Under the pieces are notes generated by a model. That model saw only the letters and a program-made list of their open reading frames with translations, searched no databases and was not told where the DNA came from. From Patescibacteria group bacterium (GTDB taxonomy: Bacteria > Patescibacteriota > Patescibacteriia > UBA1558 > GWA2-36-10), in the NCBI GenBank assembly GCA_041650755.1, contig JBAZKN010000001.1, positions 70,796 through 134,795 of the forward strand: a stretch of DNA of 64,000 nt, read 5' to 3'. Of the stretch, positions 6,516-61,510 are shown piece after piece. The translations under genes and the position numbers were made by a program. Numbering within the stretch: the first letter of the stretch is position 1; each line of letters opens with the position of its first letter.

Positions 6516-7103
6516 TTATTTTTTCTTTTTAGCGGCTGATTTTTTTGGAGCAGTTTTTGCCTTTTTTTCTTTAGCTGGTTTTTTCGCCTTAATCTCTTTA
6601 ACCGTTGCTATTGGCTCTGTTTTTGTTACTGAATTTTTAGGTGCCAGGATTTTTATTAACTCGTCTATTTTGGCATTTAGTTTTTTGATCTCACTCATGA
6701 CATCCCCGGAATGTTGATTTATATTGCCGCCCTTACCAAAACAGTTATTACAATAAACCGGTTTGCCGGCAGTTGGCCGAAAAGGTATTTGGCAAGTCTG
6801 ACCGCATTTATCGCAAACCGCGTCATAAATTTGTTTACCGCCTCTATCACCACCGAATTTATTTGATCTGGCATTGCCGCCATCTTGTTTACCAAAGCAG
6901 TTACTGCAATAAATTGGTCGGTCACCAGTGGGCTTGAAAGGAACTTCGCAAGCATAGCCGCATTCACTGCAGATAGCTTTGTGCATTGTTTTAGCACCAT
7001 CTCGGCCGCCGAATCTTTTTCCGCCGCCAAATGATTTATTGCCGCCAAAACCACGATTAAAGCCACCCCCTTGGCGGTTGCGGTTTCTATCAAAATTTGC
7101 CAT
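6516..7103 (-). CDS. RGG-box / tandem CxxC(N17)CxxC zinc-ribbon / Lys-rich tail protein, a putative nucleic-acid-binding protein
   Basis: N-terminus GGGFNRGFGGNKSFGGGKRFGG; two copies of C-x2-C-x4-(V/I)PF-x-P-x5-P-(I/V)-YC-x2-CF; coiled-coil segment; C-terminal AKKPAKEKKAKTAPKKSAAKKKK. Confidence 0.75.
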   Translation of the reverse strand: MANFDRNRNRQGGGFNRGFGGNKSFGGGKRFGGRDGAKTMHKAICSECGYACEVPFKPTGDRPIYCSNCFGKQDGGNARSNKFGGDRGGKQIYDAVCDKCGQTCQIPFRPTAGKPVYCNNCFGKGGNINQHSGDVMSEIKKLNAKIDELIKILAPKNSVTKTEPIATVKEIKAKKPAKEKKAKTAPKKSAAKKKK

Positions 7104-8231: not shown

Positions 8232-8921
8232 TTAGCGAAACAGAGCTGTTTGCCTGGGCGCTACGATGCCTGGGTCCAGCGCGATGCTGGCGACTTGAGC
8301 GCCGAGGTATCGGCGCTCTACTAGCACCCAGACGATCTTTTTGGTTCCGTCCGGCTCTTGCGTATTGAACGCATTGTTGCTGAACTCCACCACTTGCCTG
8401 CGGCTATCGCACAAAGGCTCTCTTCCTCTTTGTTCTTGGAAGCACAGAACGCCACTGTCGCTGACAGGGATGGTCGAAGAGTCAGCGGTCGAGATGTACA
8501 GGGTGATTGTGCCTCGGCGGAAGAGAATCTTGTAGTCGTCTGGCATGGTGATGGCCAGGCGATACACTACCAGGTTGGGGTTGGTGACCAACTTGGACAG
8601 GAGATAGTCGGAGCGGGGATGCGGGGTGATAGGCTTACCATCCGGGTCAACGCCAGTCATCAATTGCTTGATACCGGCCATAGATGCTGGGACACCGCGA
8701 TCCCTGAACAACTGGTCAAGCTCTTGTATGCGCCTGTCGTACCATTGCTTGGGATCGCCCCAGCCGCTGTTCATGGTAGAGAAGATCACGTCTGGAGTCA
8801 GGCTAGGTAGCGGAGTGTAGGTGATGTCCGTCGGCCTGCCAGCGATTGCCGCTGTGTCTAGCAGTCCAAGGCCGCAAAAGACAATCAGCGACAGGATGAG
8901 GAAAGCGACTCTTCTCAACAT
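8232..8921 (-). CDS. Secreted hypothetical protein (230 aa) on GC island B
   Basis: AGGAG RBS 7 nt before ATG at 8921; signal peptide MLRRVAFLILSLIVFCGLGLLDTAAIAG; about 60% GC. Confidence 0.65.
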   Translation of the reverse strand: MLRRVAFLILSLIVFCGLGLLDTAAIAGRPTDITYTPLPSLTPDVIFSTMNSGWGDPKQWYDRRIQELDQLFRDRGVPASMAGIKQLMTGVDPDGKPITPHPRSDYLLSKLVTNPNLVVYRLAITMPDDYKILFRRGTITLYISTADSSTIPVSDSGVLCFQEQRGREPLCDSRRQVVEFSNNAFNTQEPDGTKKIVWVLVERRYLGAQVASIALDPGIVAPRQTALFR

Positions 8922-9127
8922 GTTGGTACTCCTTCTGCCCCTTTGGGGCAATGAGGGGTTGCTTTTCAAAGAACCGATTGGCTGGCTTTTGGCCGCCATT
9001 ATGTCAACTCTCGTTAACTCTTTATATAAATACTTACGTGGTTTTTTGTCAAGACTTGACCTTTTGCATAGACAAAAACCCCACTAAGTGAGGCCTTTTA
9101 TCATTATTTGGGTTATTTTCTTGGGAT

Positions 9128-9971: not shown

Positions 9972-9980
9972 AAAAGCCAT

Positions 9981-10053
9981 TATGCCGGTTACGCTACTAG
10001 CTCCTAATCGTTCAAGCGTCCATATACAAACGATTATTCACAGCCTCATTTTG
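9981..10053 (+). repeat. Structured repeat copy B
   Basis: tatgccggttacgctactagctcct / AATCGTT caagcgtccatataca AACGATT / attcacagcctcatttt. Confidence 0.7.
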
Positions 10054-10133
10054 ATCCTCGATATATTGAAATGAACTTTAACAAAATACACCTCCCATTT
10101 AAGAGGCGTAACCGTTAAAGTCATTTTGACTAT

Positions 10134-10203
10134 TATGCCGGTTACGCTACTAGCTCCTGACCACCCAAGCGTCCATATACAGGTGGTCATTCATAGCCTC
10201 ATT
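10134..10203 (+). repeat. Structured repeat copy C
   Basis: tatgccggttacgctactagctcc / TGACCACC caagcgtccatataca GGTGGTCA / ttcatagcctcatta. Confidence 0.7.
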
Positions 10204-10269
10204 AGTGTATTATATTGTTAACAATTAGCAATATATCATATTACCCATATTTTGTCAATAGGGGATAAA

Positions 10270-23801: not shown

Positions 23802-24854
23802 ATGTTGAGGAGATTTTTCCGCAAATTTTCTAAGGATATGGGAATTGACCTGGGTACGGCCAATACTTTGGTTTATGTGCGCGATCAAGGCATTGTGATC
23901 AATGAACCCAGTGTGGTAGCAGTCAATAATCGAACAGAAAAAATTATTGCTGTCGGGGAGGATGCCAAAATAATGTTGGGCAAAACCCCAATGCATATTA
24001 CCGTGACCAAGCCTTTGGTGGACGGGGTGATTTCGGATTTTGAGGTATCAGAAAAAATGATCAAGCATTTTATTGAAAAAGTGCATCGTGAATCTATGAC
24101 TTTTGTCCCGCGACCTAGGGTGGTAGTAGCTATTCCTCTGGATGTCACCGAAGTAGAGCGTAAAGCAGTAGAAGATGCGGTCTTGCGTGCTGGTGCGGCG
24201 GAAGTCTTTTTGATTGAAGAGCCAATGGCCGCAGCTATTGGCGCTGGCTTGCCTATTCAAGAAGCGGCCGGCAGCATGATAGTGGACATTGGTGGCGGCA
24301 CTACGGAAATAGCCATTATTTCTTTGTCGGGCATTGTGTCTTGGAAATCATTGAAATTGGCCGGCGATAAACTAGATGACGCCATTATCCAATATGCCCG
24401 CGATAAATTTAATTTACTCTTGGGCCAACGGACAGCGGAAAAAATAAAAATGCAAGTTGGCTCGGTTTTACCACAAGATCAGACACTGGAGACTATTATG
24501 CGCGGTCGTGATTTATTGACCGGCTTGCCCAAAGAGGTGCATATTACCGATGCTAATATTCGCGAAGCTATTGCCAAACAAATTAAGTTGATTATTGATA
24601 ACATCAAAAATACGATTGAAACAGCGCCGCCAGAGCTAGTATCTGATTTATATGAGCGAGGCATGGTTTTGACTGGTGGCGGAGCTATGCTGCGAGGGTT
24701 GGATGAGTTGATTGCCAAAGAAACGAAAATGCCGGTTCATATTACTGATGAGCCATTGACGGCAGTGGTCAGGGGCACTGGTAAGGTTTTGGATGATCTG
24801 GAAAATTTAAAAGAAATTTTATTGCCCCCAACTCGAGATATTGGTTTGGGCTAA
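23802..24854 (+). CDS. mreB: Rod-shape-determining protein MreB
   Basis: N-terminus MLRRFFRKFSKDMGIDLGTANTLVYV parallels E. coli MreB; actin-fold motifs. Confidence 0.9.
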   Translation: MLRRFFRKFSKDMGIDLGTANTLVYVRDQGIVINEPSVVAVNNRTEKIIAVGEDAKIMLGKTPMHITVTKPLVDGVISDFEVSEKMIKHFIEKVHRESMTFVPRPRVVVAIPLDVTEVERKAVEDAVLRAGAAEVFLIEEPMAAAIGAGLPIQEAAGSMIVDIGGGTTEIAIISLSGIVSWKSLKLAGDKLDDAIIQYARDKFNLLLGQRTAEKIKMQVGSVLPQDQTLETIMRGRDLLTGLPKEVHITDANIREAIAKQIKLIIDNIKNTIETAPPELVSDLYERGMVLTGGGAMLRGLDELIAKETKMPVHITDEPLTAVVRGTGKVLDDLENLKEILLPPTRDIGLG

Positions 24855-25601: not shown

Positions 25602-26098
25602 AATATTTAGTATCAGCATTTTTATTTCTATCAAGTATATATTGCTTTACGATTCTGACTTGGTCTAATAATGGTTGGCAGTTTTTGCAGCCATTTTTGA
25701 TAGTGGTTTTGTTGTTTTATTTTAATACCGAGGATGATTGGCTGCCTTATATCTTAGCCCTGATTTCTGGTCTCTATCTTGATTCGGTCGGCGGTATTTT
25801 TGGTTTGTATAGTGTCATATTTATTAGTTTGATATTTATTTTACGCACTCTGCAATTGACGGTTTTTACCGCTCGCAATATGCTGACGGTTATTTTATTG
25901 GTGGTTTTTTCTATAATTATTTTTTGGCTGATGTTCTGGTTGTTAAACTTTTTATTTGCCGGCTATGCTTACGTTTTTACCTGGTCACTACTTGGGCACA
26001 TTGCTAAAGGGGCAATAGCCAATTTATTGATTATTATTTTGGGGCATATTTTATATTATAATTTTTGGTTAAAGCTACATGAAAGACAATCCTTTTAA
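25598..26098 (+). CDS. mreD: MreD-like polytopic membrane protein
   Basis: 166 aa with 5 TM helices; 4-nt overlap with mreC; conserved gene order. Confidence 0.55.
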   Translation: MKYLVSAFLFLSSIYCFTILTWSNNGWQFLQPFLIVVLLFYFNTEDDWLPYILALISGLYLDSVGGIFGLYSVIFISLIFILRTLQLTVFTARNMLTVILLVVFSIIIFWLMFWLLNFLFAGYAYVFTWSLLGHIAKGAIANLLIIILGHILYYNFWLKLHERQSF

Positions 26099-27986
26099 AA
26101 TCCAGGAAGGCACTGTTCGAGATGGTCGCGTGGCCGAATGGCTAAAGCACCGGCAAACTGGTGATTATTTGAGCTTTGAATTTGTGCCCAAGGCGCAGGA
26201 TTTGGGTAAATTTATCTCTGATAAAAAAATTAAAATTACCTTAGTATTGTTTTTGGCAGTTTTATTTGTTCTTTTGGCGCGGGCTAGCTACCTGCAGATT
26301 ATCCAAGGAACCCATTTTCGCGGTATAGCTGAAGGAAATCGTTTGCGCAATGATGTGATTCCAGCTAATCGTGGCTTGATTTATGATCGTTTTGGCAATT
26401 TATTGGTGCGCAATGTATCCTATTTTTTCCTTTATTTAAATAAGCAAATTTTGGATAAAGACAGCGTGGCAGCTGCCGAGTTGACTGATAAGTTGCTCCC
26501 GATTTTGAAGATTTCTGCTGATGAGCTAAGCCAACGTCTGCAAGTTGCACCCCAAGACGCAGACAAGGCTTTGGTTTATGAAAATTTGCCCTATGAGTCA
26601 GCTATGCAGTTGATGGTGTTGTCGGAAAATTATCCGGCTATTCAAGTGAACTATGAACCGCGGCGGCAATATTTAGCCTCTACCGGTCTATCGCACGTTT
26701 TGGGCTATTTGGGTGTGGTCAGCCCAGAAGACTTACAAAAAAACCCCGGCTATCATTATAATGACCGCTTGGGTAAAGACGGGCTAGAAGCTGTCTATGA
26801 GTCTATTTTGAAAGGTGAAGACGGTCAGCGTCAGGTAGAAGTTGACGCCTTGTATCATGAAAAAAACATTGTCTCCATGACTGAGCCGGTAGATGGCCAG
26901 GATTTGGTTTTGACTATTGATAATAAGGCTGAAGCTAAGCTGACAGAGATTATGGAAACTCAAGCCAGAACCAACGGCAAACTAAAAATGGCCGCTGTTG
27001 TTTTGGATGCCAAAGACGGCGGAGTATTAGCTATGGTAAGTTTGCCCACTTATGATAATAATATTTTTACCACGATTTTAAATAATGATGAATATGGAAA
27101 AATTATTTATGATTCGAATACTCCTTTGCTCAATAGGGTGATTGCCGGCACTTATCCTTTGGGTTCAGTTTTTAAATTAATAGTCGGCTCGGCTGCTCTG
27201 CAGGAAAAAATTATTGATACCAGTTTTACAGTCAATAGTACCGGCGGAGTTTCGGTCAGCAGCAATTTTTTTCCCGACTGGCGATCAGGCGGACATGGTT
27301 TGACCAATATTTATTGGGCGATAGCCGATTCAGTCAATACTTTTTTTTATACTGTGGGCGGCGGTAATAATCAATGGCTAAAAATTGGCTTAGGAGTAGA
27401 CAAAATTATTGATTATGCCAAAAGATTTGGCCTAAGTAAATTGACTGGCATTGATTTATTGGGAGAGAATCCGGGATTTTTGCCCAGCAAACAATGGAAA
27501 GAAGAGAATATTAAAGAAAGATGGTATTTGGGTGATACTTATAATCTATCCATTGGTCAGGGGTATTTGCTGGCAACGCCTTTGCAGGCAGCTGTTTATA
27601 CTTCTTATTTTGCTAATTTTGGACAAGCTTTTCAGCCACATTTAGTCAAAGAAATAAAAACCAAAGATGGTGTTCAATCTATTATCCCCAAGCCAATTTT
27701 GACTAACATTGTTTCATCTGATAATTTAAATGTGATTCGTCAAGCATTGCGGCAAACTGTGATTCAGGGGACAGCAGTGAGCTTGCAGTCAGTCAGCGTG
27801 CCAGTAGCCGGCAAGACTGGTACCGCCCAATTTAATCGTAATAAATCACCACATTCTTGGTTTACTGCCTTTGCTCCCTATGACGATCCCAAAATAGTAA
27901 TGACAGTTATTGTGGAAGAGGGCGGAGACACCGGTTTGGCAGTCACTGTAGCAAGACAGTTTATGGAGTGGTATTTTTCCCAATAG
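26079..27986 (+). CDS. mrdA: Penicillin-binding protein 2 (elongasome transpeptidase)
   Basis: SVFK (SxxK), SxN, KTGTA motifs; N-terminal dimerisation domain. Confidence 0.9.
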   Translation: MKDNPFKIQEGTVRDGRVAEWLKHRQTGDYLSFEFVPKAQDLGKFISDKKIKITLVLFLAVLFVLLARASYLQIIQGTHFRGIAEGNRLRNDVIPANRGLIYDRFGNLLVRNVSYFFLYLNKQILDKDSVAAAELTDKLLPILKISADELSQRLQVAPQDADKALVYENLPYESAMQLMVLSENYPAIQVNYEPRRQYLASTGLSHVLGYLGVVSPEDLQKNPGYHYNDRLGKDGLEAVYESILKGEDGQRQVEVDALYHEKNIVSMTEPVDGQDLVLTIDNKAEAKLTEIMETQARTNGKLKMAAVVLDAKDGGVLAMVSLPTYDNNIFTTILNNDEYGKIIYDSNTPLLNRVIAGTYPLGSVFKLIVGSAALQEKIIDTSFTVNSTGGVSVSSNFFPDWRSGGHGLTNIYWAIADSVNTFFYTVGGGNNQWLKIGLGVDKIIDYAKRFGLSKLTGIDLLGENPGFLPSKQWKEENIKERWYLGDTYNLSIGQGYLLATPLQAAVYTSYFANFGQAFQPHLVKEIKTKDGVQSIIPKPILTNIVSSDNLNVIRQALRQTVIQGTAVSLQSVSVPVAGKTGTAQFNRNKSPHSWFTAFAPYDDPKIVMTVIVEEGGDTGLAVTVARQFMEWYFSQ

Positions 27987-28032: not shown

Positions 28033-28494
28033 ATGGATAAAAAAGTTTTGACTCAAGAGGGCCTAAATAATCTGAAAGCTGAACTAGAGGATTTGAAGAC
28101 CAATAAGCGTAAAGAAGTGGCCGAGCGTATTAAAATTGCCAAAGAATACGGTGATTTATCAGAAAACGCCGAATATCAAGAAGCTAAGGATCAGCAGGGG
28201 TATGTTGAGGGGCGTATTTTAGAATTAGAAGCCTTGATAAAAACAGCTATTTTAGCCGATAAGCAGGTTAATGATCACAATATTGTAGGCATTGGCTCTC
28301 ATGTTGCCGTGCAGCGCGATGGGCAGACGCTAAATTTTACTATTGTAGGTAGTACCGAAGCTGATCCGGCCAACAAAAAAATTTCCCTAGAATCACCTTT
28401 GGGTCAAGCTTTGCTTAATAAAAAAATAGGCGATGAAGTAGAAGTAAAATTGCCCGGGGGTATAGCAATATATAAAATTTTGGATATCAAATAA
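28033..28494 (+). CDS. greA: Transcription elongation factor GreA
   Basis: GDLSENAEYQEAKDQQ coiled-coil finger; 153 aa. Confidence 0.9.
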   Translation: MDKKVLTQEGLNNLKAELEDLKTNKRKEVAERIKIAKEYGDLSENAEYQEAKDQQGYVEGRILELEALIKTAILADKQVNDHNIVGIGSHVAVQRDGQTLNFTIVGSTEADPANKKISLESPLGQALLNKKIGDEVEVKLPGGIAIYKILDIK

Positions 28495-29507
28495 TGTTTA
28501 TCAAGAAAATCGGCATTGATTTAGGCACGACTTATACTCTGGTTTATATCCCTAAGCGAGGGATTGTTATCAATGAGCCGTCAGTAGTCGCTATTTCTGT
28601 GTTTGATAAAAAAGTTTTGGCAGTAGGGGATGAGGCCAAAGAAATGATTGGTCGCACGCCGGATTCTATAGTAGCTGCTCGGCCTTTGAAAAATGGAGTG
28701 ATTGCTGATTATAAAACCACGGAAAGCATGCTGCGCTATTTTATTGGCAAAGCAGTTGGCGGCATGAAGATTTTTAGACCGGAAGTAATGATTGCCGTGC
28801 CGGCCGGTATTACATCAACCGAGCGGCGAGCAGTGATTGATGCTACTTTGGCGGCTGGCGCCAAAGCAGCCTTTATTATCAAAGAGCCTATTGCGGCTGC
28901 CATTGGTGCTGATATTCCGATTGGTTCAGCTTCCGGGCACATGATCGTTGACATGGGTGGCGGCACTTCCGAGGTGGCTGTGATTTCTTTGGGTGGTATT
29001 GTGGCTAATACTTCAGTGCGTATCGGCGGTAATCGCTATGATGCGGCTATTTCCGAATTTATTAAAAAGAAATATAATTTAGCTATTGGCGAAAGAACTG
29101 CTGAAGAAATTAAAATCAAAGCTGGTTCAGCTCAGTTTTTGCCAAAAGGTGAAAAATTATATATTGACATCAAGGGCCGCGATATGATCAGTGGCCTGCC
29201 GCGCACCATCACAGTAGGCTCGGATGATGTGACAGAGGCTTTGCAAAATGAGCTGCAGGGCTTGATATCAGCCGTTAAATCTGTCTTGTATCAAACGCCG
29301 CCAGAATTATCAGCTGACATTATGGATAAGGGCATGGTTTTATCGGGCGGCACTGCTTTGTTGCGCAACATGGACAAGCTCTTGTCTCAAGCCACTGGCG
29401 TGCCAGCCTATGTGGCCGAAGATGCTTTATTGTGCGTGGCTAGAGGCACGGGTATTGCCCTAGAAAACCTAGAGTCATATAAGCGTAGCATATTATCAGC
29501 TAAATAG
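28494..29507 (+). CDS. Second MreB/Mbl-like actin homologue
   Basis: IGIDLGTTYTLVYI, DMGGGTSEVAVIS, SGGTALL motifs; paralogue of 23802..24854. Confidence 0.85.
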   Translation: MFIKKIGIDLGTTYTLVYIPKRGIVINEPSVVAISVFDKKVLAVGDEAKEMIGRTPDSIVAARPLKNGVIADYKTTESMLRYFIGKAVGGMKIFRPEVMIAVPAGITSTERRAVIDATLAAGAKAAFIIKEPIAAAIGADIPIGSASGHMIVDMGGGTSEVAVISLGGIVANTSVRIGGNRYDAAISEFIKKKYNLAIGERTAEEIKIKAGSAQFLPKGEKLYIDIKGRDMISGLPRTITVGSDDVTEALQNELQGLISAVKSVLYQTPPELSADIMDKGMVLSGGTALLRNMDKLLSQATGVPAYVAEDALLCVARGTGIALENLESYKRSILSAK

Positions 29508-42897: not shown

Positions 42898-45354
42898 ATG
42901 GAATTTACCGTTGAAAATATAGCTGTTGTCATTAGCCTGGTTATTATTCTTAGTATTATTTTTCCCGTGATCGCAAATTATCAAAAAAATAAGGTTGATA
43001 AGAATTTAAAATTGGACATGTTATTGATTAAAGTGCCGAAATATACCAAGCAAGAAAAAGAAGAGTTGTCCAAACAATACATTGAACAGACTTTAGGTAA
43101 AATTGAAAATTTTTTTTCTGCCCTAGCTGGCCTCAAGGCCGAACATCCTTTTTTGGGGCAAGCCAAAGAAATTTTTTCCCTAGATATTGTTTCGGTAGAT
43201 GGTTTTATAAATTTTTACGCGGCCGTGCCGCCAAAATTTAAAGACTTCTTTATTGCCCAGCTGCAGGCTGTCTATCCCAAAATTTATGTAGAAGAAGTGG
43301 TTGATTATAATATTTTTCAGCCACAAGGACAGGTCTTGGCTGGCAATTTATCTTTTGCCAATGATTTTACTTTACCCATCAAGACATATAAGACTTTTGA
43401 AAATGACCCCTTAGAGGGAATTACCAATACCTTAAGTAAGCTGACCAACGACGAATCGGCTGTTGTGCAATATGTCTTTAAATCTGCCCCCAAAAAATGG
43501 CATCAACGCGGCCGTCAACTGGCTCAAAAAATGCAAGCCGGAGCTACTTTTGCCGATGCTATTAAACAGGTTGGTGGCACTTCTTTTTTTGATAAATTGG
43601 AAAAAACAGGTAGTTTTTTTGGCAGCTTTTTTGCTACCAGTAAAAAAGAGGATGAGCAAAAAAAGAAATCCCTGGAAGTCAAACAGCCCTTGTCAGCCAT
43701 GGAACAAGAGCGGGCCAAAAGCCTAGAAGCAAAAACTTCTAAAGCTGGTTTGGATGTCAATATTCGCATCGTAGTTTCAACCAGAAGCTTGGAGCGCTCC
43801 AAGGCAGTTTTACTGGACGTTCTCAATAGCTACAATCAATATAATATTTATGAGTTTGGCAATCGTTTTCAAGCCAGTATACCGCGCCACCCGGATACTA
43901 TTATTGAGTACTTGATTTATCGACATTTTTCAAACAAGCGTAAACTTTTGCTCAACGCTGAGGAAATGGTCAGCGTGGTGCATCTGCCTTTACCGACCAC
44001 TGAAACGCCAAATATTGATTGGCTAGAAGCTGTCAAGGCGCCACCGCCCAGCAGTCTGCCCAGCGAAGGCATTATTTTGGGCAAAAGCATTTATCGTGGC
44101 AAAGAAACTTTGGTGCGCATCAAGGATGCTGATCGTCGGCGACACATGTACGAAATCGGCCAGACCGGTACTGGTAAGTCTGCCTTTATGGAAAGCTTGA
44201 TTAAACAGGATATTGAAGCTGGCAAAGGATTGTGCGTGATTGATCCGCACGGTGAATTGGTAGAAAGATGCTTAACCTATATACCAAAAGAAAGAGCCGA
44301 AGACGTGATTGTTTTTGATCCATCGGATACTGATCGGCCAGTAGCCATTAACATGTTGGAATATGATACCGATGAACAGAAGACTTTTGTGATCAACGAA
44401 ATGATCGCTATCTTTGATAAGCTTTATGATCTGAAAGCTACTGGTGGGCCGATGTTTGAGCAATATATGCGTAATGCAATGCTTTTGGTGATGGACGACA
44501 AAGATTCGGGAGCGACTTTGTTGGAAGTGCCGAGAGTCTTGTCAGATGAAGCTTACCGCAAGCACAAGTTGAGCAAGGTCAAGAACCGCTTAGTCAAAGA
44601 TTTTTGGGAAAAAGAAGCGCAAAAAGCCGGCGGTGAAGCGTCCCTAGCCAATATGGTACCCTATATCACTAGCAAGCTCACGCCTTTTATTGCCAATGAT
44701 ATCATCCGGCCGATTATTGCCCAGCAAAAAAGCGCTTTCAATTTTCGTGAAGCAATGGATAGCAAAAAGATTATCATGATCAATCTATCCAAGGGCAAAA
44801 TTGGTGACATGAATAGTAGCCTTTTGGGCATGATTATTATTGGTAAACTACTATTTGCCGCTTTGAGCAGAGCGGATTATACTGAAGAGCAACGCAATGA
44901 TTTTTATCTCTATATTGATGAGTTCCAAAATTATACTACCGATAGTATCGCTATTATTTTATCCGAAGCCAGAAAATACAAACTGAATTTAATTATCGCT
45001 CATCAGTATATCGCTCAGCTGGTAAAAAATAACGACACCAAGATTCGAGATGCTGTTTTTGGCAATGTCGGCACTATCATCGCTTATCGTCTAGGCGTAG
45101 AGGACGCAGAGGTGATTGCCAAGCAAATGGCCCCGGTGGTTACTGAATATGACCTGATCAATATGCCAAAATTTACGGCTTATATAAAATTATTGATTGA
45201 TAATGCCAATCCGCCAGCCTTTAATTTTAATCCCATTAGGCCGGAAAAAGGCAACTTTGAGCTAGCGGCGGCCATCAAACAATTGTCTCGATTAAAATAT
45301 GGCCGTGATAGAAAAACAGTAGAAGACGAGGTTCAGCAAAGGATTATCATTTAG
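42898..45354 (+). CDS. Membrane-anchored FtsK/HerA-superfamily (VirB4/VirD4/DUF87-like) P-loop ATPase, fused N-domain plus ATPase
   Basis: N-terminal TM; Walker A IGQTGTGKS followed by VIDPHGEL (DPHGE signature); Walker B YIDEFQNY; ARKYKLNLIIAHQYIAQL; FGNVGTIIAYRLG. Confidence 0.75.
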   Translation: MEFTVENIAVVISLVIILSIIFPVIANYQKNKVDKNLKLDMLLIKVPKYTKQEKEELSKQYIEQTLGKIENFFSALAGLKAEHPFLGQAKEIFSLDIVSVDGFINFYAAVPPKFKDFFIAQLQAVYPKIYVEEVVDYNIFQPQGQVLAGNLSFANDFTLPIKTYKTFENDPLEGITNTLSKLTNDESAVVQYVFKSAPKKWHQRGRQLAQKMQAGATFADAIKQVGGTSFFDKLEKTGSFFGSFFATSKKEDEQKKKSLEVKQPLSAMEQERAKSLEAKTSKAGLDVNIRIVVSTRSLERSKAVLLDVLNSYNQYNIYEFGNRFQASIPRHPDTIIEYLIYRHFSNKRKLLLNAEEMVSVVHLPLPTTETPNIDWLEAVKAPPPSSLPSEGIILGKSIYRGKETLVRIKDADRRRHMYEIGQTGTGKSAFMESLIKQDIEAGKGLCVIDPHGELVERCLTYIPKERAEDVIVFDPSDTDRPVAINMLEYDTDEQKTFVINEMIAIFDKLYDLKATGGPMFEQYMRNAMLLVMDDKDSGATLLEVPRVLSDEAYRKHKLSKVKNRLVKDFWEKEAQKAGGEASLANMVPYITSKLTPFIANDIIRPIIAQQKSAFNFREAMDSKKIIMINLSKGKIGDMNSSLLGMIIIGKLLFAALSRADYTEEQRNDFYLYIDEFQNYTTDSIAIILSEARKYKLNLIIAHQYIAQLVKNNDTKIRDAVFGNVGTIIAYRLGVEDAEVIAKQMAPVVTEYDLINMPKFTAYIKLLIDNANPPAFNFNPIRPEKGNFELAAAIKQLSRLKYGRDRKTVEDEVQQRIII

Positions 45355-52746: not shown

Positions 52747-54429
52747 ATGAATAAATATCAGTCCAGTTCTCATAAGGTTATGTCTGCCCAGAGAGTTAAG
52801 ATTACTTTTGTGGCCATTATTATTTTGGCTATTTTGGGTTGCTTGGTGGCCCTGCCAAAACCAGGCTTTATACCCAATAATAATTGGTTTAGGCAGTTTA
52901 AAATACACTTGGGCCTTGATTTGCAGGGCGGCACCCATCTGGTTTATCAAGCAGATGTATCACAAGTGCCGGATAATGAGCGTCGCGATAGAGTGGAAGC
53001 CTTGCGGGACGTGATTGAACGCCGGGTAAACGCCTATGGCGTGTCTGAACCGGTTGTCCAGACCAATTATAGCGGCGATAATTATCGTATTATTGTTGAG
53101 CTGGCCGGGGTGACCGATGTCAATCAAGCTATCAGTATTATCGACAAGACTCCTTTGCTCGAATTCAAGACACAAGGCCAGGCTCCTATTGATAATAATG
53201 ACCAGAATGCCGTTCGTGATAAAGCCAACGACATATTACAGCGAGTACTGAAGGGCGAAGACTTTGCTGAGCTAGCCAAGCAATATAGTGAGGATCCAGT
53301 TTCAGCTGCTCAAGGCGGAGATTTGCCTTGGGTGACCAAAGGCAAATTTGTCCCAGAATTTGATACAGCCATTTTTGATCAGCTAAAGACAGGCGAGGTA
53401 GATAAACAATTAGTTGAATCTCAATTTGGCTATCATATTATCAAAAAAATAGAGGAGAGAACCAATGACAGTGGCGAAAAGGAAGTCCATGCCGCCCATA
53501 TTTTGATAAAAAAAATTGACGCTGATATGGTCTGGGAGGATACTTCTTTGAGTGGCCGCAATATCAAAAAAGCCGAGTTAAGCTTTGATCAGAATACTCA
53601 AGAGCCCTTGGTCTTAATTAACTTTGATGACCAGGGTAAAGAAATTTTTGCTGATCTGACCACTGCCAACGTCGGTAAGCCAATCGCCATATTTTTGGAT
53701 GGAGTTTTACGCTCTGAGCCGGTTGTGCAAGAAGCTATTACTGACGGAAGTGCCCAGATTTCCGGAAAATTCACCATCAAAGAAGCCAAACAGCTCGTCA
53801 AAGACTTGAATTTAGGCGCCCTGCCTGTGCCAATAAAACTAGTGACTCAACAAACAGTTGGCCCTACTTTGGGGCAAGTGTCGCTAGACAAAAGTTTGAT
53901 AGCTGGCATTATTGGTTTTTTGGCAGCTGCTTTATTTATGCTCATTTTGTATCGTTTGCCGGGTATTTTAGCAGTGGTGGCCTTGGGGCTATATACTATT
54001 TTGAGTTTGAGTATTTTTGAAATTATACCAGTAACCATGACCATGGCCGGCATTGCTGGTTTTATTCTATCTATCGGCATGGCTGTGGATGCCAATATTT
54101 TAATATTTGAAAGAACCAAAGAAGAGTTATATAAAGGCAAAACTTTATGGACTGCCATTGAAGAAGGATTCAGCAGAGCTTGGCCATCAATTCGCGATTC
54201 AAATGTTTCCTCAATTATTACTTGTATAATTTTGGCTTGGTTTGGCACTTCGATTATCAGAGGTTTTGCTATTACCTTGGGGATAGGTATCTTGGTGTCC
54301 ATGTTTTCCGCCATTACCGTGACCCGCACCTTCTTGTACTTAGTTGTTAACAAAAAATTAGAAAATAAATTGAGTTGGTTTGGCGTACATATTACTAAAA
54401 CCACCGAAGAACAACAAAACCATGTATAG
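52747..54429 (+). CDS. secD: Protein translocase subunit SecD with a parvulin-like (PpiC-type PPIase) insertion
   Basis: LGLDLQGGTHLVYQAD and the SecD TM bundle; inserted segment (about 53180-53530) EDFAELAKQYSEDPVSAAQGGDLPWVTKGKFVPEFDTAIF...SQFGYHIIKKIEER...VHAAHILIKK. Confidence 0.85.
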   Translation: MNKYQSSSHKVMSAQRVKITFVAIIILAILGCLVALPKPGFIPNNNWFRQFKIHLGLDLQGGTHLVYQADVSQVPDNERRDRVEALRDVIERRVNAYGVSEPVVQTNYSGDNYRIIVELAGVTDVNQAISIIDKTPLLEFKTQGQAPIDNNDQNAVRDKANDILQRVLKGEDFAELAKQYSEDPVSAAQGGDLPWVTKGKFVPEFDTAIFDQLKTGEVDKQLVESQFGYHIIKKIEERTNDSGEKEVHAAHILIKKIDADMVWEDTSLSGRNIKKAELSFDQNTQEPLVLINFDDQGKEIFADLTTANVGKPIAIFLDGVLRSEPVVQEAITDGSAQISGKFTIKEAKQLVKDLNLGALPVPIKLVTQQTVGPTLGQVSLDKSLIAGIIGFLAAALFMLILYRLPGILAVVALGLYTILSLSIFEIIPVTMTMAGIAGFILSIGMAVDANILIFERTKEELYKGKTLWTAIEEGFSRAWPSIRDSNVSSIITCIILAWFGTSIIRGFAITLGIGILVSMFSAITVTRTFLYLVVNKKLENKLSWFGVHITKTTEEQQNHV

Positions 54430-55560: not shown

Positions 55561-56667
55561 ATGGAATCTATATTGGATCAAGTGATTACTGCCAGACATT
55601 TGTCAAATTTGGCAAATTTTAATCCCCATCAAACCCTAGATAACATCTTGGCGGCTTTGTCAGACCGCGAACGCGAGATTATTAAGTTGCGTCATGGTTT
55701 ATCTGGTTATGAAAAAAAGACCTTGGAGGAAATTGGCCAAAAATACAAAGTCACTCGTGAAAGGGTAAGGCAGATTGAGAATACTGCTCTCAAGAAAATC
55801 ACCAAAAATTTTGATCAAACCTATCTTAAGGAAATAGAAGATATTGCCAATGGCATTTTATCTGAACATGGCGGCATGATGTCAGAAACCAATTTAATCA
55901 AAGAATTATTGACCGTGCCCGGTAATACGCCGGAGAATCAGGCAGCTATTCGCTTTATCTTAAATCAATTACTGAAAAACCGTTTTCACTTCATCAAAGA
56001 ATCCAAGGATTACCATAATTTTTGGAAAACTCCAGAGTCTTCCCAAGGTTTTTTTGAAGAAACCATTGATCATATTGCTAAATTGATCCATGGCCATGGT
56101 ACGCCATTGCCCTTAGAACATCTTTTATCAAAAATTCAACAGCATGATTTTTATAAAGATAATGATGATTTGACTGATCGAGTGATTGTCAACTTTATTT
56201 ACATCACCAAAAAACTAAAGGCCAACCCTTACGATGAGTGGGGTTTGGCAGAATGGTCAGCCATCAGTCCGCGTCGCATGAACGACAAAATTTATCTGGT
56301 CTTGAAAAAGGAAAATCGCCCCATGCACTTTACGGAAATTGCCGATATGATCAATAAAATGCAGTTTGATCAGCGTCAAGCCTATCCGGCCACCATCCAT
56401 AATGAATTGATTTTAGATGATAAGTACGTTTTGGTGGGCCGTGGTATTTATGCCTTATCAGAATGGGGCTATAAGCCGGGCGTGGTCAGCGACGTGATCG
56501 CTGAAATTTTACAAGCCAATCCACAAGGCTTAAGTAAAAAGGAGATTATTGCCGAAGTATTAAAAAAGCGCTTAATCAAAGAAACCACTATTACTTTAGC
56601 CCTGATGAACAAAGATCGTTTTATCCGCAATGAACGAGGTCGCTACACTTTGAAAACTAATGCTTAA
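55561..56667 (+). CDS. Sigma-70 region-4-like HTH protein fused to tandem HARE-HTH domains
   Basis: LSDREREIIKLRHGL...TLEEIGQKYKVTRERVRQIENTALKKI (sigma r4); later PYDEWGLAEWS and LVGRGIYALSEWGY (HARE-HTH hallmark). Confidence 0.65.
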   Translation: MESILDQVITARHLSNLANFNPHQTLDNILAALSDREREIIKLRHGLSGYEKKTLEEIGQKYKVTRERVRQIENTALKKITKNFDQTYLKEIEDIANGILSEHGGMMSETNLIKELLTVPGNTPENQAAIRFILNQLLKNRFHFIKESKDYHNFWKTPESSQGFFEETIDHIAKLIHGHGTPLPLEHLLSKIQQHDFYKDNDDLTDRVIVNFIYITKKLKANPYDEWGLAEWSAISPRRMNDKIYLVLKKENRPMHFTEIADMINKMQFDQRQAYPATIHNELILDDKYVLVGRGIYALSEWGYKPGVVSDVIAEILQANPQGLSKKEIIAEVLKKRLIKETTITLALMNKDRFIRNERGRYTLKTNA

Positions 56668-56786
56668 ATGAGATTTTATTACAAGAACAACCGGTTTCCA
56701 CTTGGGGCGGTTGTTTTTGTTTCCTACTACTTTAAAAATTTTGCAAAAAAAGGTATAATATACTGGTAGCCCATCAAAAAATAGCT

Positions 56787-58289
56787 ATGAATTTTAGCGT
56801 TGAGGTCAATAATTTTATCAATACACTACTGACTATAGGTTCTTTGCCACCGGATATAGCTTTTATTTATTTAATGACCCACTATATCTGGCCAATTTAT
56901 GTTGTCATGATTTTATGGATGGCTTATGATGTTTGGCTGACGTCTCTGCAGAATAAGTGGTTTGCTACTCACAAGTTCATCCTTTTGGCTATTGATATAC
57001 CTAAAGATACCGAACAGACACCAAAGGCTATTGAGCAACTATTTGCCACCCTATCAGGCGCTCATACGCCCATCAGTACTCGCGATAAATATGCTGGCAT
57101 GTTTCAGCTGTCATTTTCTTTTGAAATTGTCAGTATAGACGGCTATATTCAATTTTTGATTCGCACTCCCAGCCACTGGCGGGATCTGGTAGAGAGTTCC
57201 ATTTATTCACAGTATCCCGATGCAGAGATCACTGAAGTGGAGGATTATACCACTGATTTGCCGCGTAAATTTCCCGACGACAAATACAATATGTGGGGTG
57301 CGGAAATAGTTTTGGTAAATAAAGATGTTTATCCCATAAAAACTTATATTGATTTTGAAGATGCGGTTTCCGGAGAATTCAAAGATCCAATGGCCTCAAT
57401 TTTGGAAACTATGAGTAAAATACAGGCCGGTGAACAGGTCTGGGTGCAGCTGATAGTCAGACCGACTGACCACCTCTGGACTAATCGTAGCAAAGCTGAA
57501 GCCGACAAATTGGCTGGTAAAAAGGTTAAAGCACAGAAAGGTTTATTGGAAAGACTGTTTGGCCCTCTGTTTGGTTTATTTTTCCTGTCTGGCGGCGACT
57601 CTATTTTTTGGCCAACTGGCGCTGAATCCAAATCAGAAAAAAAGGCCAATGAACCAATTAGCTTGATGCTGTATATGACCCCGGGAGAGAGAATAAAGAT
57701 TGAAGCAGTAGAAAAAAAGGCATCCAAAATAGGCTTTCAATGCAAAATTCGCTTGGTCTATCTATCGCCCAAAGAGCAGTATAATCCCGGCAGGGTAGTT
57801 TCTTCGGTGTTTGGTTCGCTGAAACAGTTTAGCACCATGCATTTGAATTCTTTTAAGCCCGATGCTAAAACCAAGACCAAAATAGAGTGGATTATGGTCA
57901 AAACCAGGACCAATTGGCGCCGTACAAACCTCATTAGAGCCTATAAGAGCCGCAGCGGCATCATCGGACATGGCTATTTTATATTAAATACCGAAGAACT
58001 AGCTACTTTGTGGCACTTTCCTAGCAAATTTATTCGCACGCCTTTATTGCAAAAAACAGAGTCCAAAAAAGCCGAACCGCCAGCTTCTTTGCCTATTATG
58101 TCTGGAATTTTTGATACCCAGACCGAGCAGGCAAGCGCTGAATTACGCCAGCAGCTAAAAACAGTGCCGGAATTCAATATACCCCTGGACAATACTTATT
58201 TTGAGGAGCGCTTTGCCAAAGACAAAAGCCAGGTCAAGCCAAGACATACAAAAAACGAGCCACCGACTAATCTACCCGTTACCAAATAA
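56787..58289 (+). CDS. Membrane-anchored N-domain protein, paralogue of the N-terminal half of 42898..45354
   Basis: 2 TM at the N-terminus; FSFEIVSIDGYIQFLIRTPSHWRDLVESSIYSQYPDAEITEVEDY aligns with FSLDIVSVDGFINFYAAVPPKFKDFFIAQLQAVYPKIYVEEVVDY. Confidence 0.65.
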   Translation: MNFSVEVNNFINTLLTIGSLPPDIAFIYLMTHYIWPIYVVMILWMAYDVWLTSLQNKWFATHKFILLAIDIPKDTEQTPKAIEQLFATLSGAHTPISTRDKYAGMFQLSFSFEIVSIDGYIQFLIRTPSHWRDLVESSIYSQYPDAEITEVEDYTTDLPRKFPDDKYNMWGAEIVLVNKDVYPIKTYIDFEDAVSGEFKDPMASILETMSKIQAGEQVWVQLIVRPTDHLWTNRSKAEADKLAGKKVKAQKGLLERLFGPLFGLFFLSGGDSIFWPTGAESKSEKKANEPISLMLYMTPGERIKIEAVEKKASKIGFQCKIRLVYLSPKEQYNPGRVVSSVFGSLKQFSTMHLNSFKPDAKTKTKIEWIMVKTRTNWRRTNLIRAYKSRSGIIGHGYFILNTEELATLWHFPSKFIRTPLLQKTESKKAEPPASLPIMSGIFDTQTEQASAELRQQLKTVPEFNIPLDNTYFEERFAKDKSQVKPRHTKNEPPTNLPVTK

Positions 58290-58291
58290 AT

Positions 58292-60001
58292 ATGAATGTT
58301 AATGATATAACAACTTTTGCTGAGACTAATTTCCGTAATTCACGGGTAAAGTTTGGTATTAAGACAGACGATAGGCGCCGACATATGTATATTATCGGTA
58401 AAACTGGCATGGGTAAATCAACCTTGTTGGAAAACATGATCATTCAGGACATCCAGGCCGGCAAAGGAGTTTGCGTAGTCGATCCACATGGTGAGCTGGT
58501 TGAAAAAGTGATTGATTTTATACCACAGAACCGCATCAATGATGTAATTTATTTCAATCCCGCTGACCTTGAATACCCGATAGCCTTTAATGTGCTGGAA
58601 AGCGTCAACATCGAGCAACGCCATTTGGTAGTTTCTGGATTGATCGGTGTCTTTAAAAAGATCTGGGCTGATTCCTGGGGCCCAAGACTAGAATATGTTC
58701 TGCATCATGCAATTTCTGCTTTGCTGGAATATCCTGGCTCGACCCTTTTGGGCATTATGCGCATGCTGACGGACAAAAAGTTTCGTGAGCGGGTAGTTGA
58801 TAAAGTGACCGATCCAGTGGTAAAGGCCTTTTGGGTTGATGAATATTCTCGTTATCCAGACAATCTCAAGGCCGAAGCCATTGCTCCGATTCAAAACAAG
58901 GTAGGCCGATTTTTATCCTCTTCTTTGATTAGAAACGTCCTGGGCCAGGTCAGATCTTCCTTCTCAATGCGGGAAATTATGGATGGCAAAAAAATATTGT
59001 TACTAAATTTATCCAAAGGCAGGGTGGGCGAGGATAACTCGGCTTTACTTGGCTCCATGATGATCACCAAGATTCAGCTGGCTGCCATGAGCCGGATAGA
59101 TACCCCGGAACAGGAGCGCAATGATTTTTACCTTTATGTTGATGAATTTCAAAATTTTGCCACCCAAAGTTTTGCCAATATTCTATCAGAAGCGCGTAAG
59201 TATAGGCTGAACTTGATCATGGCCCACCAATATATTGATCAATTAAAATGGGGTAATGATGAAACGGTCAAGTCGGCAGTCTTTGGTAATGTCGGCACCA
59301 TCATTGCTTTCCGCGTTGGTGCTACTGATGCGGAATTTCTGGAAAAAGAATTTTTCCCGGTTTTTACTCAAGAAGATTTGGTCAATCTGTCTAAATACGA
59401 AATTTATCTAAAATTAATGGTTGATGGCGTAGCCACTGAGCCATTTTCAGGAGTAGGCTTGCCGCCGGTAATATTACCTGCCGAATCAATCGGCATCAAA
59501 GAAAAGGTGATCAAAGTATCCAGAGAAAGATATGCCAAGCCCCGCGAGATTATTGAAGATAAAATCGCTCGTTGGGCAGAAAATAAAGAGGGCAAAGAGC
59601 CAGAAAAAAACAGCAAAGAAGACAGAGTAAAAAAATCCAAAAAAAAAGGCGATGAGGAAAGAAAATCTGGTTCCAAAAAGCCAAAAATCAGCAAAATAAT
59701 AAATTGCACTTACTGCGGTAAAGAAGCGGAAATCAATTTTGAGCCCGATCCTACTAGGCCAGTATACTGCGATGATTGTTTGATACTGGCCAAACAAGGA
59801 AAAATTCCCTCTCCTACCAGTATCAAAATACTCAAAGAAGAGTCAGCCAGTAAAAAAGTAGATGATGATCAGACCAAAGAACAGTTTATCTCTCTATCGG
59901 AAGCAATAAAATCAAATAATCTTCATTCTGGCAAAGAAAAAAGTAAGCAAGTGGCCGAGGATGAGCATCTGCTTCAGCCAGGACAAATTGTTAAGTTTTA
60001 A
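58292..60001 (+). CDS. FtsK/HerA-superfamily (VirB4/VirD4/DUF87-like) ATPase with C-terminal Lys-rich linker and zinc ribbon
   Basis: IIGKTGMGKST Walker A; VVDPHGELVE; YVDEFQNF Walker B; ARKYRLNLIMAHQYIDQL; C-terminus CTYCGKEAEINFEPDPTRPVYCDDC. Confidence 0.75.
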   Translation: MNVNDITTFAETNFRNSRVKFGIKTDDRRRHMYIIGKTGMGKSTLLENMIIQDIQAGKGVCVVDPHGELVEKVIDFIPQNRINDVIYFNPADLEYPIAFNVLESVNIEQRHLVVSGLIGVFKKIWADSWGPRLEYVLHHAISALLEYPGSTLLGIMRMLTDKKFRERVVDKVTDPVVKAFWVDEYSRYPDNLKAEAIAPIQNKVGRFLSSSLIRNVLGQVRSSFSMREIMDGKKILLLNLSKGRVGEDNSALLGSMMITKIQLAAMSRIDTPEQERNDFYLYVDEFQNFATQSFANILSEARKYRLNLIMAHQYIDQLKWGNDETVKSAVFGNVGTIIAFRVGATDAEFLEKEFFPVFTQEDLVNLSKYEIYLKLMVDGVATEPFSGVGLPPVILPAESIGIKEKVIKVSRERYAKPREIIEDKIARWAENKEGKEPEKNSKEDRVKKSKKKGDEERKSGSKKPKISKIINCTYCGKEAEINFEPDPTRPVYCDDCLILAKQGKIPSPTSIKILKEESASKKVDDDQTKEQFISLSEAIKSNNLHSGKEKSKQVAEDEHLLQPGQIVKF

Positions 60002-60010
60002 CGCGATACC

Positions 60011-61510
60011 ATGCCATATTATCTTAAAATAAAAAAGCTGGACATATCTACCGGCCAGTCAAATATAGCCCTGCTTAACGAAAAAGAGGCCACTCATTAT
60101 GGTATCAGGGCCGGCGATAAGATAAAAATTTGTTGGCAAAAAAATCGTGTAATCGCTGAGGCTAATACTACTGCCAAAAATGTAAAGCCCGGTCAAATAG
60201 GGCTATATAAAGACATTTGGGAGCAAATAAGTATTCCGCCCAATACTATTGTTGAAGTAGAATTTTTGCAAAGATCGCAGTCTATTCAAGCCATCAAAAA
60301 ACGTCTTTTGGGTAAAAAATTAAAGTACCAAGATTTTTACCAAATATTTTCCGATATCGCCAGCGGCGTTTTGACCAGAACAGAAATTACCTATTTTGTG
60401 GCTTCCAGTTTTATTAAATCCTATACTGATCAGGAGCTTTATTATATGGTAAAAGCCATGGCGGAAACTGGTGAAATGCTCAAATTTAAAGGTATAGTGG
60501 CTGATAAACATTCAGTCGGTGGTTTGGCCGGTAATCGTACTACTATGGTGGCTGTACCTATTATAGCAGCCTTGGGGCTGACTATACCAAAGACTTCTTC
60601 CCAAGCTATTACTTCGCCGGCTGGCACAGCTAATACCATGGAAGTGCTGGCCCCAGTGGCTTTTAGCGCTGAGGCGATATACAAAATAGTCAATAAAGTT
60701 CATGCTTGTTTGGTTTGGGGCGGCGGTCTAAATTTAGCTCCGGCTGATGATAAAATCTTGGAAGTTTCTTATCCTTTATCACTAGAGCCCTATGATAAAA
60801 TGCTGGTTAGCATCATGGCTAAGAAGGTGGCTATGGGTGTGACTCATTTGGTGATTGATATGCCGGTTGGGCCAACCACCAAAATACCCAATATGACTAT
60901 TGCCAAAAATTTGGAGCGTAAATTCAAATATTTGGCTAGACGTTTTGGCATCAAAATAAAAGTAGTTATGATACATACAGAAGATCCGGTAGGCAGAGGA
61001 GTAGGCCCTGCCTTAGAGGCTCGCGATGTTTTGCGCGTGCTCCAGCAAAAAGATAATTATCCGGCTGACCTGGCCAACAAAGCTATTCATCTGGCTGGTG
61101 AGCTTTTAGAACTGACCGGCAAAGCAAAACATAGGCATGGGGCTAAAATGGCCTGGCAAACCCTAGAATCTGGAGCTGCCTGGAAAAAAATGCAGGAAAT
61201 CATCAAGGCGCAGGGCGGCAATCCAACCATTGATCCGGAGAGCATTGTCTTGGGTGCTTGTAAAAAATATTTTAATGCCAAGCATTCGGGCAAAATAATT
61301 TTTACTGATAATAAAGCCTTGAATACCGTGGCTCGTATTTTGGGCGCGCCCAGCGACCAGTTGGCCGGCGTTTATCTAAACAAAGAATACGCTGATCACG
61401 TCAAAAAAGGCGAGCGCCTATTTACGCTTTATGCCCGCAACAAAGAGCGGCTGCATTTGGCTACGGTCGCCTTAGAAAAAATGTCAATTTTCAAAATTGG
61501 CAAACAGTAA
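60011..61510 (+). CDS. AMP phosphorylase / archaeal-type thymidine-phosphorylase homologue
   Basis: Extra N-terminal domain MPYYLKIKKLDISTGQSNIALLNEKEATHYGIRAGDKIKI typical of AMPpase; KHSVGGLAGNRTTMVAVPIIAALG phosphate-binding motif. Confidence 0.8.
   Translation: MPYYLKIKKLDISTGQSNIALLNEKEATHYGIRAGDKIKICWQKNRVIAEANTTAKNVKPGQIGLYKDIWEQISIPPNTIVEVEFLQRSQSIQAIKKRLLGKKLKYQDFYQIFSDIASGVLTRTEITYFVASSFIKSYTDQELYYMVKAMAETGEMLKFKGIVADKHSVGGLAGNRTTMVAVPIIAALGLTIPKTSSQAITSPAGTANTMEVLAPVAFSAEAIYKIVNKVHACLVWGGGLNLAPADDKILEVSYPLSLEPYDKMLVSIMAKKVAMGVTHLVIDMPVGPTTKIPNMTIAKNLERKFKYLARRFGIKIKVVMIHTEDPVGRGVGPALEARDVLRVLQQKDNYPADLANKAIHLAGELLELTGKAKHRHGAKMAWQTLESGAAWKKMQEIIKAQGGNPTIDPESIVLGACKKYFNAKHSGKIIFTDNKALNTVARILGAPSDQLAGVYLNKEYADHVKKGERLFTLYARNKERLHLATVALEKMSIFKIGKQ

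Follow-up and report, generated by a model that had tools for sequence, protein, structure and literature searches.

The stretch of DNA analysed here, referred to as the window, is 64,000 nucleotides (nt) long and comes from a Patescibacteria group bacterium (GenBank assembly GCA_041650755.1, contig JBAZKN010000001.1, positions 70,796 to 134,795 of the forward strand). Towards its 3′ end are two abutting open reading frames (ORFs): ORF A, for a protein of the DUF8128 family, and ORF B, for an ATPase related to the coupling proteins of type IV secretion systems (T4SSs). A fused paralogue, with both halves in one polypeptide, is encoded elsewhere in the window (Table 1). The TAA stop codon of ORF A, at 58287-58289, is followed by the bases AT and then by the ATG of ORF B at 58292, giving a spacer of 2 nt. 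The reading frames of the two genes differ, therefore simple read-through cannot join them, and the split falls exactly on the border between the N-domain and the ATPase domain. An earlier reading of the same DNA, made from the sequence only, had described the N-domain and the ATPase as separate genes, the split counterpart of the fused copy, and both ORFs are indeed present as such. It had also placed the stop 3 nt before the ATPase start, which is not the case, and had proposed translational coupling, which is plausible on comparison with other genomes. In a scan of one genome per species, at least 585 loci were found and architecture was counted in the best 80; in 67 of these a DUF8128 gene is directly followed by an ATPase gene, with a median spacer of 9 nt, and the two genes are within 10 nt of each other, as a gap or an overlap, in 36 of the 67.

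Table 1. Features of the split gene pair, its fused paralogue and their surroundings. Positions are those of the window; aa, amino acids.
Feature	Position	Strand	Evidence or detail
ORF A, 500-aa DUF8128 protein, predicted membrane-anchored N-domain subunit	56787..58289	+	ORF; PF26449 annotation; AlphaFold2 model
ORF A N-terminal helical hairpin, aa 1-60	56787..56966	+	model helices 4-19 and 22-60; one clear hydrophobic segment, aa 24-43
ORF A VirB4-N-terminal-domain-like alpha/beta domain, aa 64-410	56976..58016	+	
ORF A C-terminal extension, aa 437-500, absent from the fused paralogue	58095..58286	+	pairwise alignment
ORF B, 569-aa soluble coupling-protein-family ATPase with putative zinc-finger tail	58292..60001	+	ORF; Pfam matches
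ORF B Walker A, GKTGMGKS, aa 36-43	58397..58420	+	identical in 119/120 orthologues
ORF B Walker B, FYLYVDEF, aa 279-286	59126..59149	+	114/120 orthologues
ORF B EARKY motif, after Walker B	59189..59203	+	119/120 orthologues
ORF B Lys-rich linker, aa 432-471	59585..59704	+	composition: 40 residues, 14 K, K+R 40 %
ORF B CxxC-x17-CxxC zinc finger, aa 472-496, CTYCGKEAEINFEPDPTRPVYCDDC	59705..59779	+	PF23477, TIGR04272
ORF B post-finger tail, aa 497-569 (73 residues)	59780..59998	+	GKIPxPSSIKI, FxSLxxALK and terminal PGxxIKF; alignment of 114 orthologue tails
Fused paralogue, 818 aa: one transmembrane helix, DUF8128 and ATPase, without tail	42898..45354	+	
Small protein near fused paralogue, 165 aa, two transmembrane helices	41916..42413	+	no family match
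Small protein near fused paralogue, 155 aa	42421..42888	+	no family match
Small protein near fused paralogue, 195 aa	45486..46073	+	no family match
Upstream neighbour, 368 aa: sigma-70 region 4 and RNA-polymerase-delta-like HARE-HTH	55561..56667	+	PF04545 and PF05066; TIGR04567, 43.7 bits against 42
Terminator-like hairpin 3′ of the upstream neighbour	56681..56720	+	RNA fold -19 kcal/mol, z -3.1 against shuffles, then a U-rich run
Promoter-like site TTTAAA-17-TATAAT, 28 nt 5′ of the ORF A start	56731..56759	+	consensus scan, 10/12 matches

The precomputed annotation for the exact ORF A protein is PF26449 (DUF8128), as it is for approximately 3000 homologues and for the N-terminal half of the fused paralogue. 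ORF A has no match in the local copy of Pfam, which probably lacks the PF26449 model, and a literature search for DUF8128 found no paper mentioning it. An AlphaFold2 model built from 92 orthologues (predicted local distance difference test, pLDDT, 84.8; predicted template modelling score 0.76) has a helical hairpin followed by an alpha/beta domain. The hydrophobic window within the hairpin has a Kyte-Doolittle score of 1.73, and the DUF8128 fold matches that of the VirB4 N-terminal domain by two methods. Based on the model, ORF A is probably a membrane anchor joined to a domain with the VirB4 N-terminal fold. The C-terminal extension is modelled with low confidence (pLDDT 49-74); its LDNxYFExxFAK motif and its terminal PPxNLP are conserved in the 92 orthologues. 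This terminal PPxNLP (58260-58277) is a second copy of the motif located before the ATPase domain in the fused protein.

ORF B exceeds the Pfam cut-offs for PF10412 (TrwB_AAD_bind; 52.2 bits against 20.5), PF02534 (T4SS-DNA_transf; 34.9 against 20.1) and PF12696 (TraG-D_C; 30.2 against 22), with no sequence-level match to VirB4 families. Among solved sequences the nearest is TrwB (1e9r, E 1.4e-5), with DotL also close, and the ATPase fold matches the VirB4 C-terminal domain, TrwB, Cag-beta and DotL. Two features that define coupling proteins are present, a P-loop domain with Walker A and Walker B motifs and a TrwB-like fold with an all-alpha insertion. The two Walker motifs and EARKY are near-invariant in the split and fused lineages alike. 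ORF B is therefore predicted to be an ATPase of the VirB4/VirD4 clade, by sequence closest to the coupling proteins, and its motifs suggest that it is catalytically intact. A third feature of coupling proteins, the N-terminal transmembrane anchor, is missing from this polypeptide, as no hydrophobic segment was found in ORF B; the anchor is located on ORF A in the split pair and in cis in the fused paralogue.

Beyond the ATPase core, ORF B continues into a tail, which the sequence-only reading had described as a Lys-rich linker of about 70 residues followed by a C-terminal zinc ribbon, and as lacking from the fused copy. The linker is present at 40 residues. The finger is likewise present, passing the cut-offs of both PF23477 (zf_Tbcl_2; 39.6 bits against 27) and TIGR04272 (37 against 36), although it is not C-terminal, having another 73 residues after it, and Pfam labels its class a probable treble clef. 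The absence from the fused copy is borne out, since that protein stops after the ATPase core and PF23477 is in none of its best 120 homologues. Searching for the tail in other genomes, as had been suggested, finds the Cys pattern of the finger in 117 of 120 close orthologues and an intact finger in 48 of 62 complete ATPase genes from species-level genomes. The linker is poorly conserved in sequence yet remains basic in orthologues (K at 20 %). Lineages without an intact finger, some of which have a decayed CxxC...CxxD version, retain a charged low-complexity linker, FxSLxxAL and a terminal PGxxIxF. When the tail only was searched against 1.84 billion representatives, there were 241 matches, most of them to small proteins with several fingers or to pieces of this same ATPase.

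The finger of ORF B is a putative zinc binder; for this finger class, zinc binding has been demonstrated in small proteins of Methanosarcina (PMC12704099). Elsewhere in the window, a 195-aa protein (6516..7103, minus strand) is RGG-rich at its N-terminus and Lys-rich at its C-terminus, and contains two CxxC-x17-CxxC (zf_Tbcl_2) fingers, the finger class of the ORF B tail; it resembles a protein that binds nucleic acid. Because of the basic linker, the finger and this RGG- and Lys-rich protein, nucleic acid may be the ligand to which the features of the ORF B tail point.

The fused paralogue was identified by BLAST comparison of ORF A and ORF B with all large ORFs of the window. ORF A aligns with residues 30-388 of the paralogue (27 % identity, E 4e-28), and residues 14-425 of ORF B align with its residues 399-812 (44 % identity, E 3e-120). 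The sequence-only reading had recommended a multiple alignment of both paralogues; in a pairwise alignment the split pair is collinear with the fused copy, and the tail is specific to the split copy. The fused gene is in a conserved small operon of its own, with the 165-aa and 155-aa genes upstream and the 195-aa gene downstream, followed by dnaX. The positions of these three small genes are kept in distant genomes (loci L084 and L085), therefore they are candidate partners of the fused ATPase.

Relatives of both forms are numerous, and almost all of the related Patescibacteria genomes that were examined have the split pair. The ATPase-plus-finger protein has more than 8000 relatives in the databases, the standalone 500-aa DUF8128 protein approximately 3000, and the fused form, of approximately 810-860 aa, more than 5600, with the same contigs recurring in all three lists. 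The best 120 relatives of ORF B are 60-81 % identical to it, belong to Komeili-, Nomura- and Parcubacteria according to their bin labels, and almost all have PF23477. Within the split lineage, identity is 69-99 % for the ATPase and 38-90 % for the N-domain, and within the fused lineage 58-99 % and 29-100 %, respectively; between the two lineages it is 39-47 % for the ATPase and 19-29 % for the N-domain. In a neighbour-joining tree the split and fused lineages are cleanly and reciprocally separated. Based on these sequence comparisons, both architectures are ancient, stable, vertically inherited and co-resident in many Patescibacteria genomes. Only one in-frame fusion was seen among the split-lineage orthologues, a 1016-aa N-domain/ATPase protein (locus L013, 3908..6958). 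This was considered as a functional re-fusion; ATPase residues 1-75, including the P-loop, are missing from it, and it is probably a deletion.

In orthologous loci the gene order is SecD, SecF, a protein with sigma-70 region 4 and HARE-HTH domains, DUF8128 and ATPase. Measured against the window protein in the 25 genomes with all five of these neighbouring genes, the ATPase has a median identity of 64 %, followed by SecD with 55 %, SecF with 53 %, and DUF8128 and the upstream sigma region 4/HARE-HTH protein with 42 % each. It is likely from this that the split pair has an old, strongly constrained core function. The sigma region 4/HARE-HTH gene is directly 5′ of the DUF8128 gene in 60 of 83 loci, and a functional link between it and the pair is putative. 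In the window its product is without sigma region 2. The SecD protein of the window (52747..54429, plus strand) has a parvulin-type peptidyl-prolyl isomerase (Rotamase) domain at residues 149-237, between the first periplasmic subdomain and the P1 head, an architecture likewise seen in two orthologous loci (L001 and L003). Nine species-level genomes have the DUF8128 gene, still after the sigma region 4/HARE-HTH gene, without an adjacent ATPase gene. A family 4 glycosyltransferase takes the place of the ATPase in these nine, for example at L021 (5295..8914, together with DUF4012) and at L056 (5474..6649).

Between the upstream gene and ORF A are the terminator-like hairpin and the promoter-like site. 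The hairpin suggests that ORF A begins a transcription unit of its own; for the promoter-like site the evidence is weak, the scan having returned 26 sites in the region against 18.8 expected. Directly 3′ of ORF B is an archaeal-type AMP phosphorylase gene (60011..61510, plus strand; TIGR03327, 539 bits against 535), followed by a NUDIX hydrolase gene. A link to nucleotide salvage was considered and set aside, because these two genes accompany the pair in just 13 and 7 of 83 loci, respectively, and reflect local synteny of close relatives. Both copies of the module lie among housekeeping genes here. Nothing within the 64-kb window resembles VirB4, VirB6, a relaxase, an integrase or a defence effector, and the VirB3-, VirB6- and VirB8-type neighbours by which a VirB4 gene may be recognized are absent from it.

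Outside the Patescibacteria, a search with the ATPase core found 318 plasmids of Streptomyces, Bacillus, Staphylococcus, Sulfolobus and haloarchaea. The homologue on a plasmid of Embleya sp. NBC_00896 (WP_331738717.1) is fused, at 812 aa, and has 27 % identity over 675 columns (E 1e-67); the alignment spans residues 122-784 of the fused paralogue and so includes the N-domain. Its gene is in a Gram-positive-type conjugation cluster with PrgI, a VirB4-like ATPase, a replication-relaxation protein and an NlpC/P60 hydrolase. On plasmid pSTJ001 of Halobacterium hubeiense the module is split (WP_059058557.1 and WP_157534011.1), with a 387-aa ‘hypothetical’ N-protein homologous to DUF8128 (hhalign probability 97.8 %, E 1e-12) and, 141 nt after its gene, a 1030-aa coupling-protein-like ATPase with 25 % identity to ORF B (E 2e-33). 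These plasmid homologues share with the pair the N-domain and ATPase module and an LxxEExxxxxHxP motif that closes the N-domain. They differ in location, being plasmid-borne members of clusters that include PrgI, a VirB4-like ATPase, a replication-relaxation protein and a cell-wall hydrolase, whereas the pair is chromosomal; they also lack the CxxC-x17-CxxC finger, and the haloarchaeal ATPase has a different tail of 600 aa. As the module is on plasmids outside the Candidate Phyla Radiation (CPR), it predates the CPR. The fused Embleya protein might suggest that fusion is the ancestral state, a proposal undone by the split haloarchaeal homologue; with both states outside the CPR, the direction of change within it is not inferable.

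The plasmid relatives fit with the reported derivation of the Patescibacteria T4SS from the mating-pair formation class MPF-FATA of monoderm bacteria and archaea (PMC12102498). It is likely, based on homology, that the split and fused copies descend from a type of coupling protein with a VirB4-like N-domain that is still present in plasmid conjugation-type clusters of monoderm bacteria and archaea. In the same study, 5,713 VirD4-like homologues were counted in 2,918 Patescibacteria genomes, with just 148 near virB4, and exaptation was raised (PMC12102498). These counts agree with approximately two copies in each genome; the study does not describe the N-domain, the two lineages or the finger.

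Compared with the type IV coupling proteins TrwB of R388, VirD4, TraD, DotL and Cag-beta, ORF B lacks a transmembrane anchor, which is found with a VirB4-like domain of approximately 350 aa on a separate protein, ORF A; the pair is also without a relaxase or T4SS neighbourhood, and the ORF B tail bears a zinc finger. VirB4/TrwK, including the split TrsD and TrsE arrangement of pGO1-type Gram-positive systems, is among the closest known systems. ORF B differs in grouping with the coupling proteins, without a sequence-level match to the VirB4 family, and the genes are not beside VirB3-, VirB6- or VirB8-type genes. Separate bona fide VirB4 genes are present in Patescibacteria (PMC12102498). From the pumps of the FtsK/HerA superfamily (FtsK/SpoIIIE, HerA and the archaeal Ced ATPases) the pair differs in having no FtsK gamma domain, no multi-pass transmembrane domain and no NurA partner. 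The DNA-uptake ATPase ComFA is a DEAD-box helicase, the fold of which is unrelated to that of ORF B.

Taken together, it is fairly probable that the pair forms the two subunits of a conserved, chromosomally fixed, coupling-protein-like membrane ATPase of Patescibacteria. ORF A would supply the membrane anchor and the domain with the VirB4 N-terminal fold, and ORF B, made in step with it from the abutting gene, would supply the P-loop ATPase of the TrwB/VirD4/TraD family. If it resembles its relatives, the ATPase would assemble as a ring at the membrane, where ORF A would hold it; residues 437-500 of ORF A would dock the ATPase in trans. Judging from the families involved, ATP hydrolysis would drive the handing-over or pushing of a macromolecular substrate, and the ORF B tail would recruit nucleic acid or an adaptor protein, as do the C-terminal tails of TraD and DotL. 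Several points weigh against this interpretation. ORF B scores far under the NCBIfam equivalog cut-offs for TraD and VirD4 (51.5 against 366 and 48.9 against 250). No T4SS gene, relaxase or channel component was found in the window, and the linkage to relaxase or mating-pair-formation genes that is typical of coupling proteins was found neither there nor in the orthologous loci. From the nine genomes in which DUF8128 lacks an adjacent ATPase gene it follows that pairing is not obligatory in cis. The 241 matches of the tail search include no informative domain fusion. In Saccharibacteria, the T4SS is essential by transposon sequencing and yet was reported to be without a recognizable coupling protein (PMC10633639), and a distant coupling protein homologue is not essential (PMC12102498); a T4SS role for the pair is therefore putative.

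Two other explanations would make the split itself trivial or young. A frameshift or assembly error in one true ORF, which the sequence-only reading had named as the finding that would undo it, could leave two ORFs abutting in different frames, as ORF A and ORF B do; the chance of this is negligible. At least 67 other species-level genomes have the two genes in this same arrangement, therefore the split is not a sequencing error, and these independent assemblies share the stop/start junction with spacers of -14 to +587 nt. In addition, ORF A has its own conserved 64-aa C-terminal extension, and the identical protein stands as a separate gene product in public sources. Recent fission with domain gain, in an actively evolving, lineage-specific system, would account for the difference in architecture between the two copies in this genome and for the tail in one only, and it could draw on the variation in tail length across lineages and the lack of an intact finger in 14 of 62 genes. 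It is nonetheless highly improbable, as the split and the finger are common to hundreds of species-level genomes, divergence between the paralogues far exceeds that among orthologues, and the ATPase is more conserved than SecD and SecF. The earlier description of an actively evolving system is contradicted by these same comparisons and by the retention of the split in 67 genomes.

Other alternatives concern function. An exapted, T4SS-independent housekeeping motor, acting alone or with another conduit, is possible and can be considered tentatively; it might, for example, pull in DNA via ComEC in place of a ComFA-type ATPase, or handle chromosomal DNA or RNA at the membrane. Such a motor would agree with the very strong conservation and with the synteny of SecD, SecF, sigma region 4/HARE-HTH, DUF8128 and ATPase genes in 40-60 of 83 loci. 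Nearly all Patescibacteria homologues are far from virB4, and exaptation was raised by the authors who reported this (PMC12102498). For the CPR, the listed com genes comprise ComEC, DprA and ComFC, and ComFA is not named; the ORF B tail combines a basic linker with a zinc finger; and there is a weak partial match to the archaeal DNA-translocating ATPase CedD. Against this, neither a com gene nor a gene for another conduit lies next to the pair, Southlakia can dispense with comEC, nucleic-acid binding by the pair is only putative, and FtsK is present in at least TM7x, where chromosome segregation is already covered, which also weakens the candidacy of the pair as an FtsK replacement. A more specific proposal is doubtful: the pair would be a housekeeping nucleic-acid translocase freed from the T4SS channel, such as the missing motor for DNA or RNA import or export, with the linker and finger gripping nucleic acid and the sigma region 4/HARE-HTH neighbour as its DNA-recognition partner. 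Origin as the remnant of an integrated conjugative or mobile element, or as an anti-phage defence ATPase of HerA, DndH or MADS type, is very unlikely, even with relatives on plasmids in conjugation-type clusters and partial PADLOC matches (mad8, 1e-15; HerA, 4e-9). No integrase, relaxase, nuclease, Sir2 or methylase partner was found, GC content is even, chromosomal synteny is kept across genera, and the near-universal vertical inheritance is unlike that of defence islands. A mobile or viral origin of this copy was rejected on the absence of relatives on IMG/VR viral contigs and of a recombinase or relaxase nearby, and a defence system because the PADLOC matches are only partial and no NurA, Sir2, Dnd or methylase partner genes are adjacent.

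Two further observations were made in the window, away from both copies of the module. Two tandem c-di-GMP-II riboswitch aptamers (RF01786) are present on the minus strand at 9974..10057 and 10127..10210, scoring 64.1 and 65.5 bits, above the gathering score. This stretch is GC-rich (0.52 against a background of approximately 0.40), and the next minus-strand ORF is 8232..8999 (255 aa, without a Pfam match). On the plus strand, two MreB paralogues (23802..24854 and 28494..29507) flank a PBP2-type transpeptidase (26079..27986).

A large part of bacterial diversity belongs to the Patescibacteria, which live on other cells. Their orphan ‘coupling protein’ homologues, about two per genome, have a role that is acknowledged as open (PMC12102498). 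Database annotation and literature counts of the family already exist; new, relative to the literature found, are the architecture, the two ancient lineages and the probable VirB4-like nature of DUF8128. The homologues resolve into two separately conserved lineages of ancient origin, one fused and one split with a zinc-finger tail, and the half without annotation, DUF8128, is predicted to fold like the N-terminal domain of VirB4. The module is traceable to conjugation-type plasmid systems of monoderm bacteria and archaea, and in at least one of its lineages the constraint equals that on core secretion genes. For studies of transport across the membrane in Patescibacteria, this provides handles in the form of two subunits, the defined motifs of the tail and a DNA-binding neighbour that is itself conserved.

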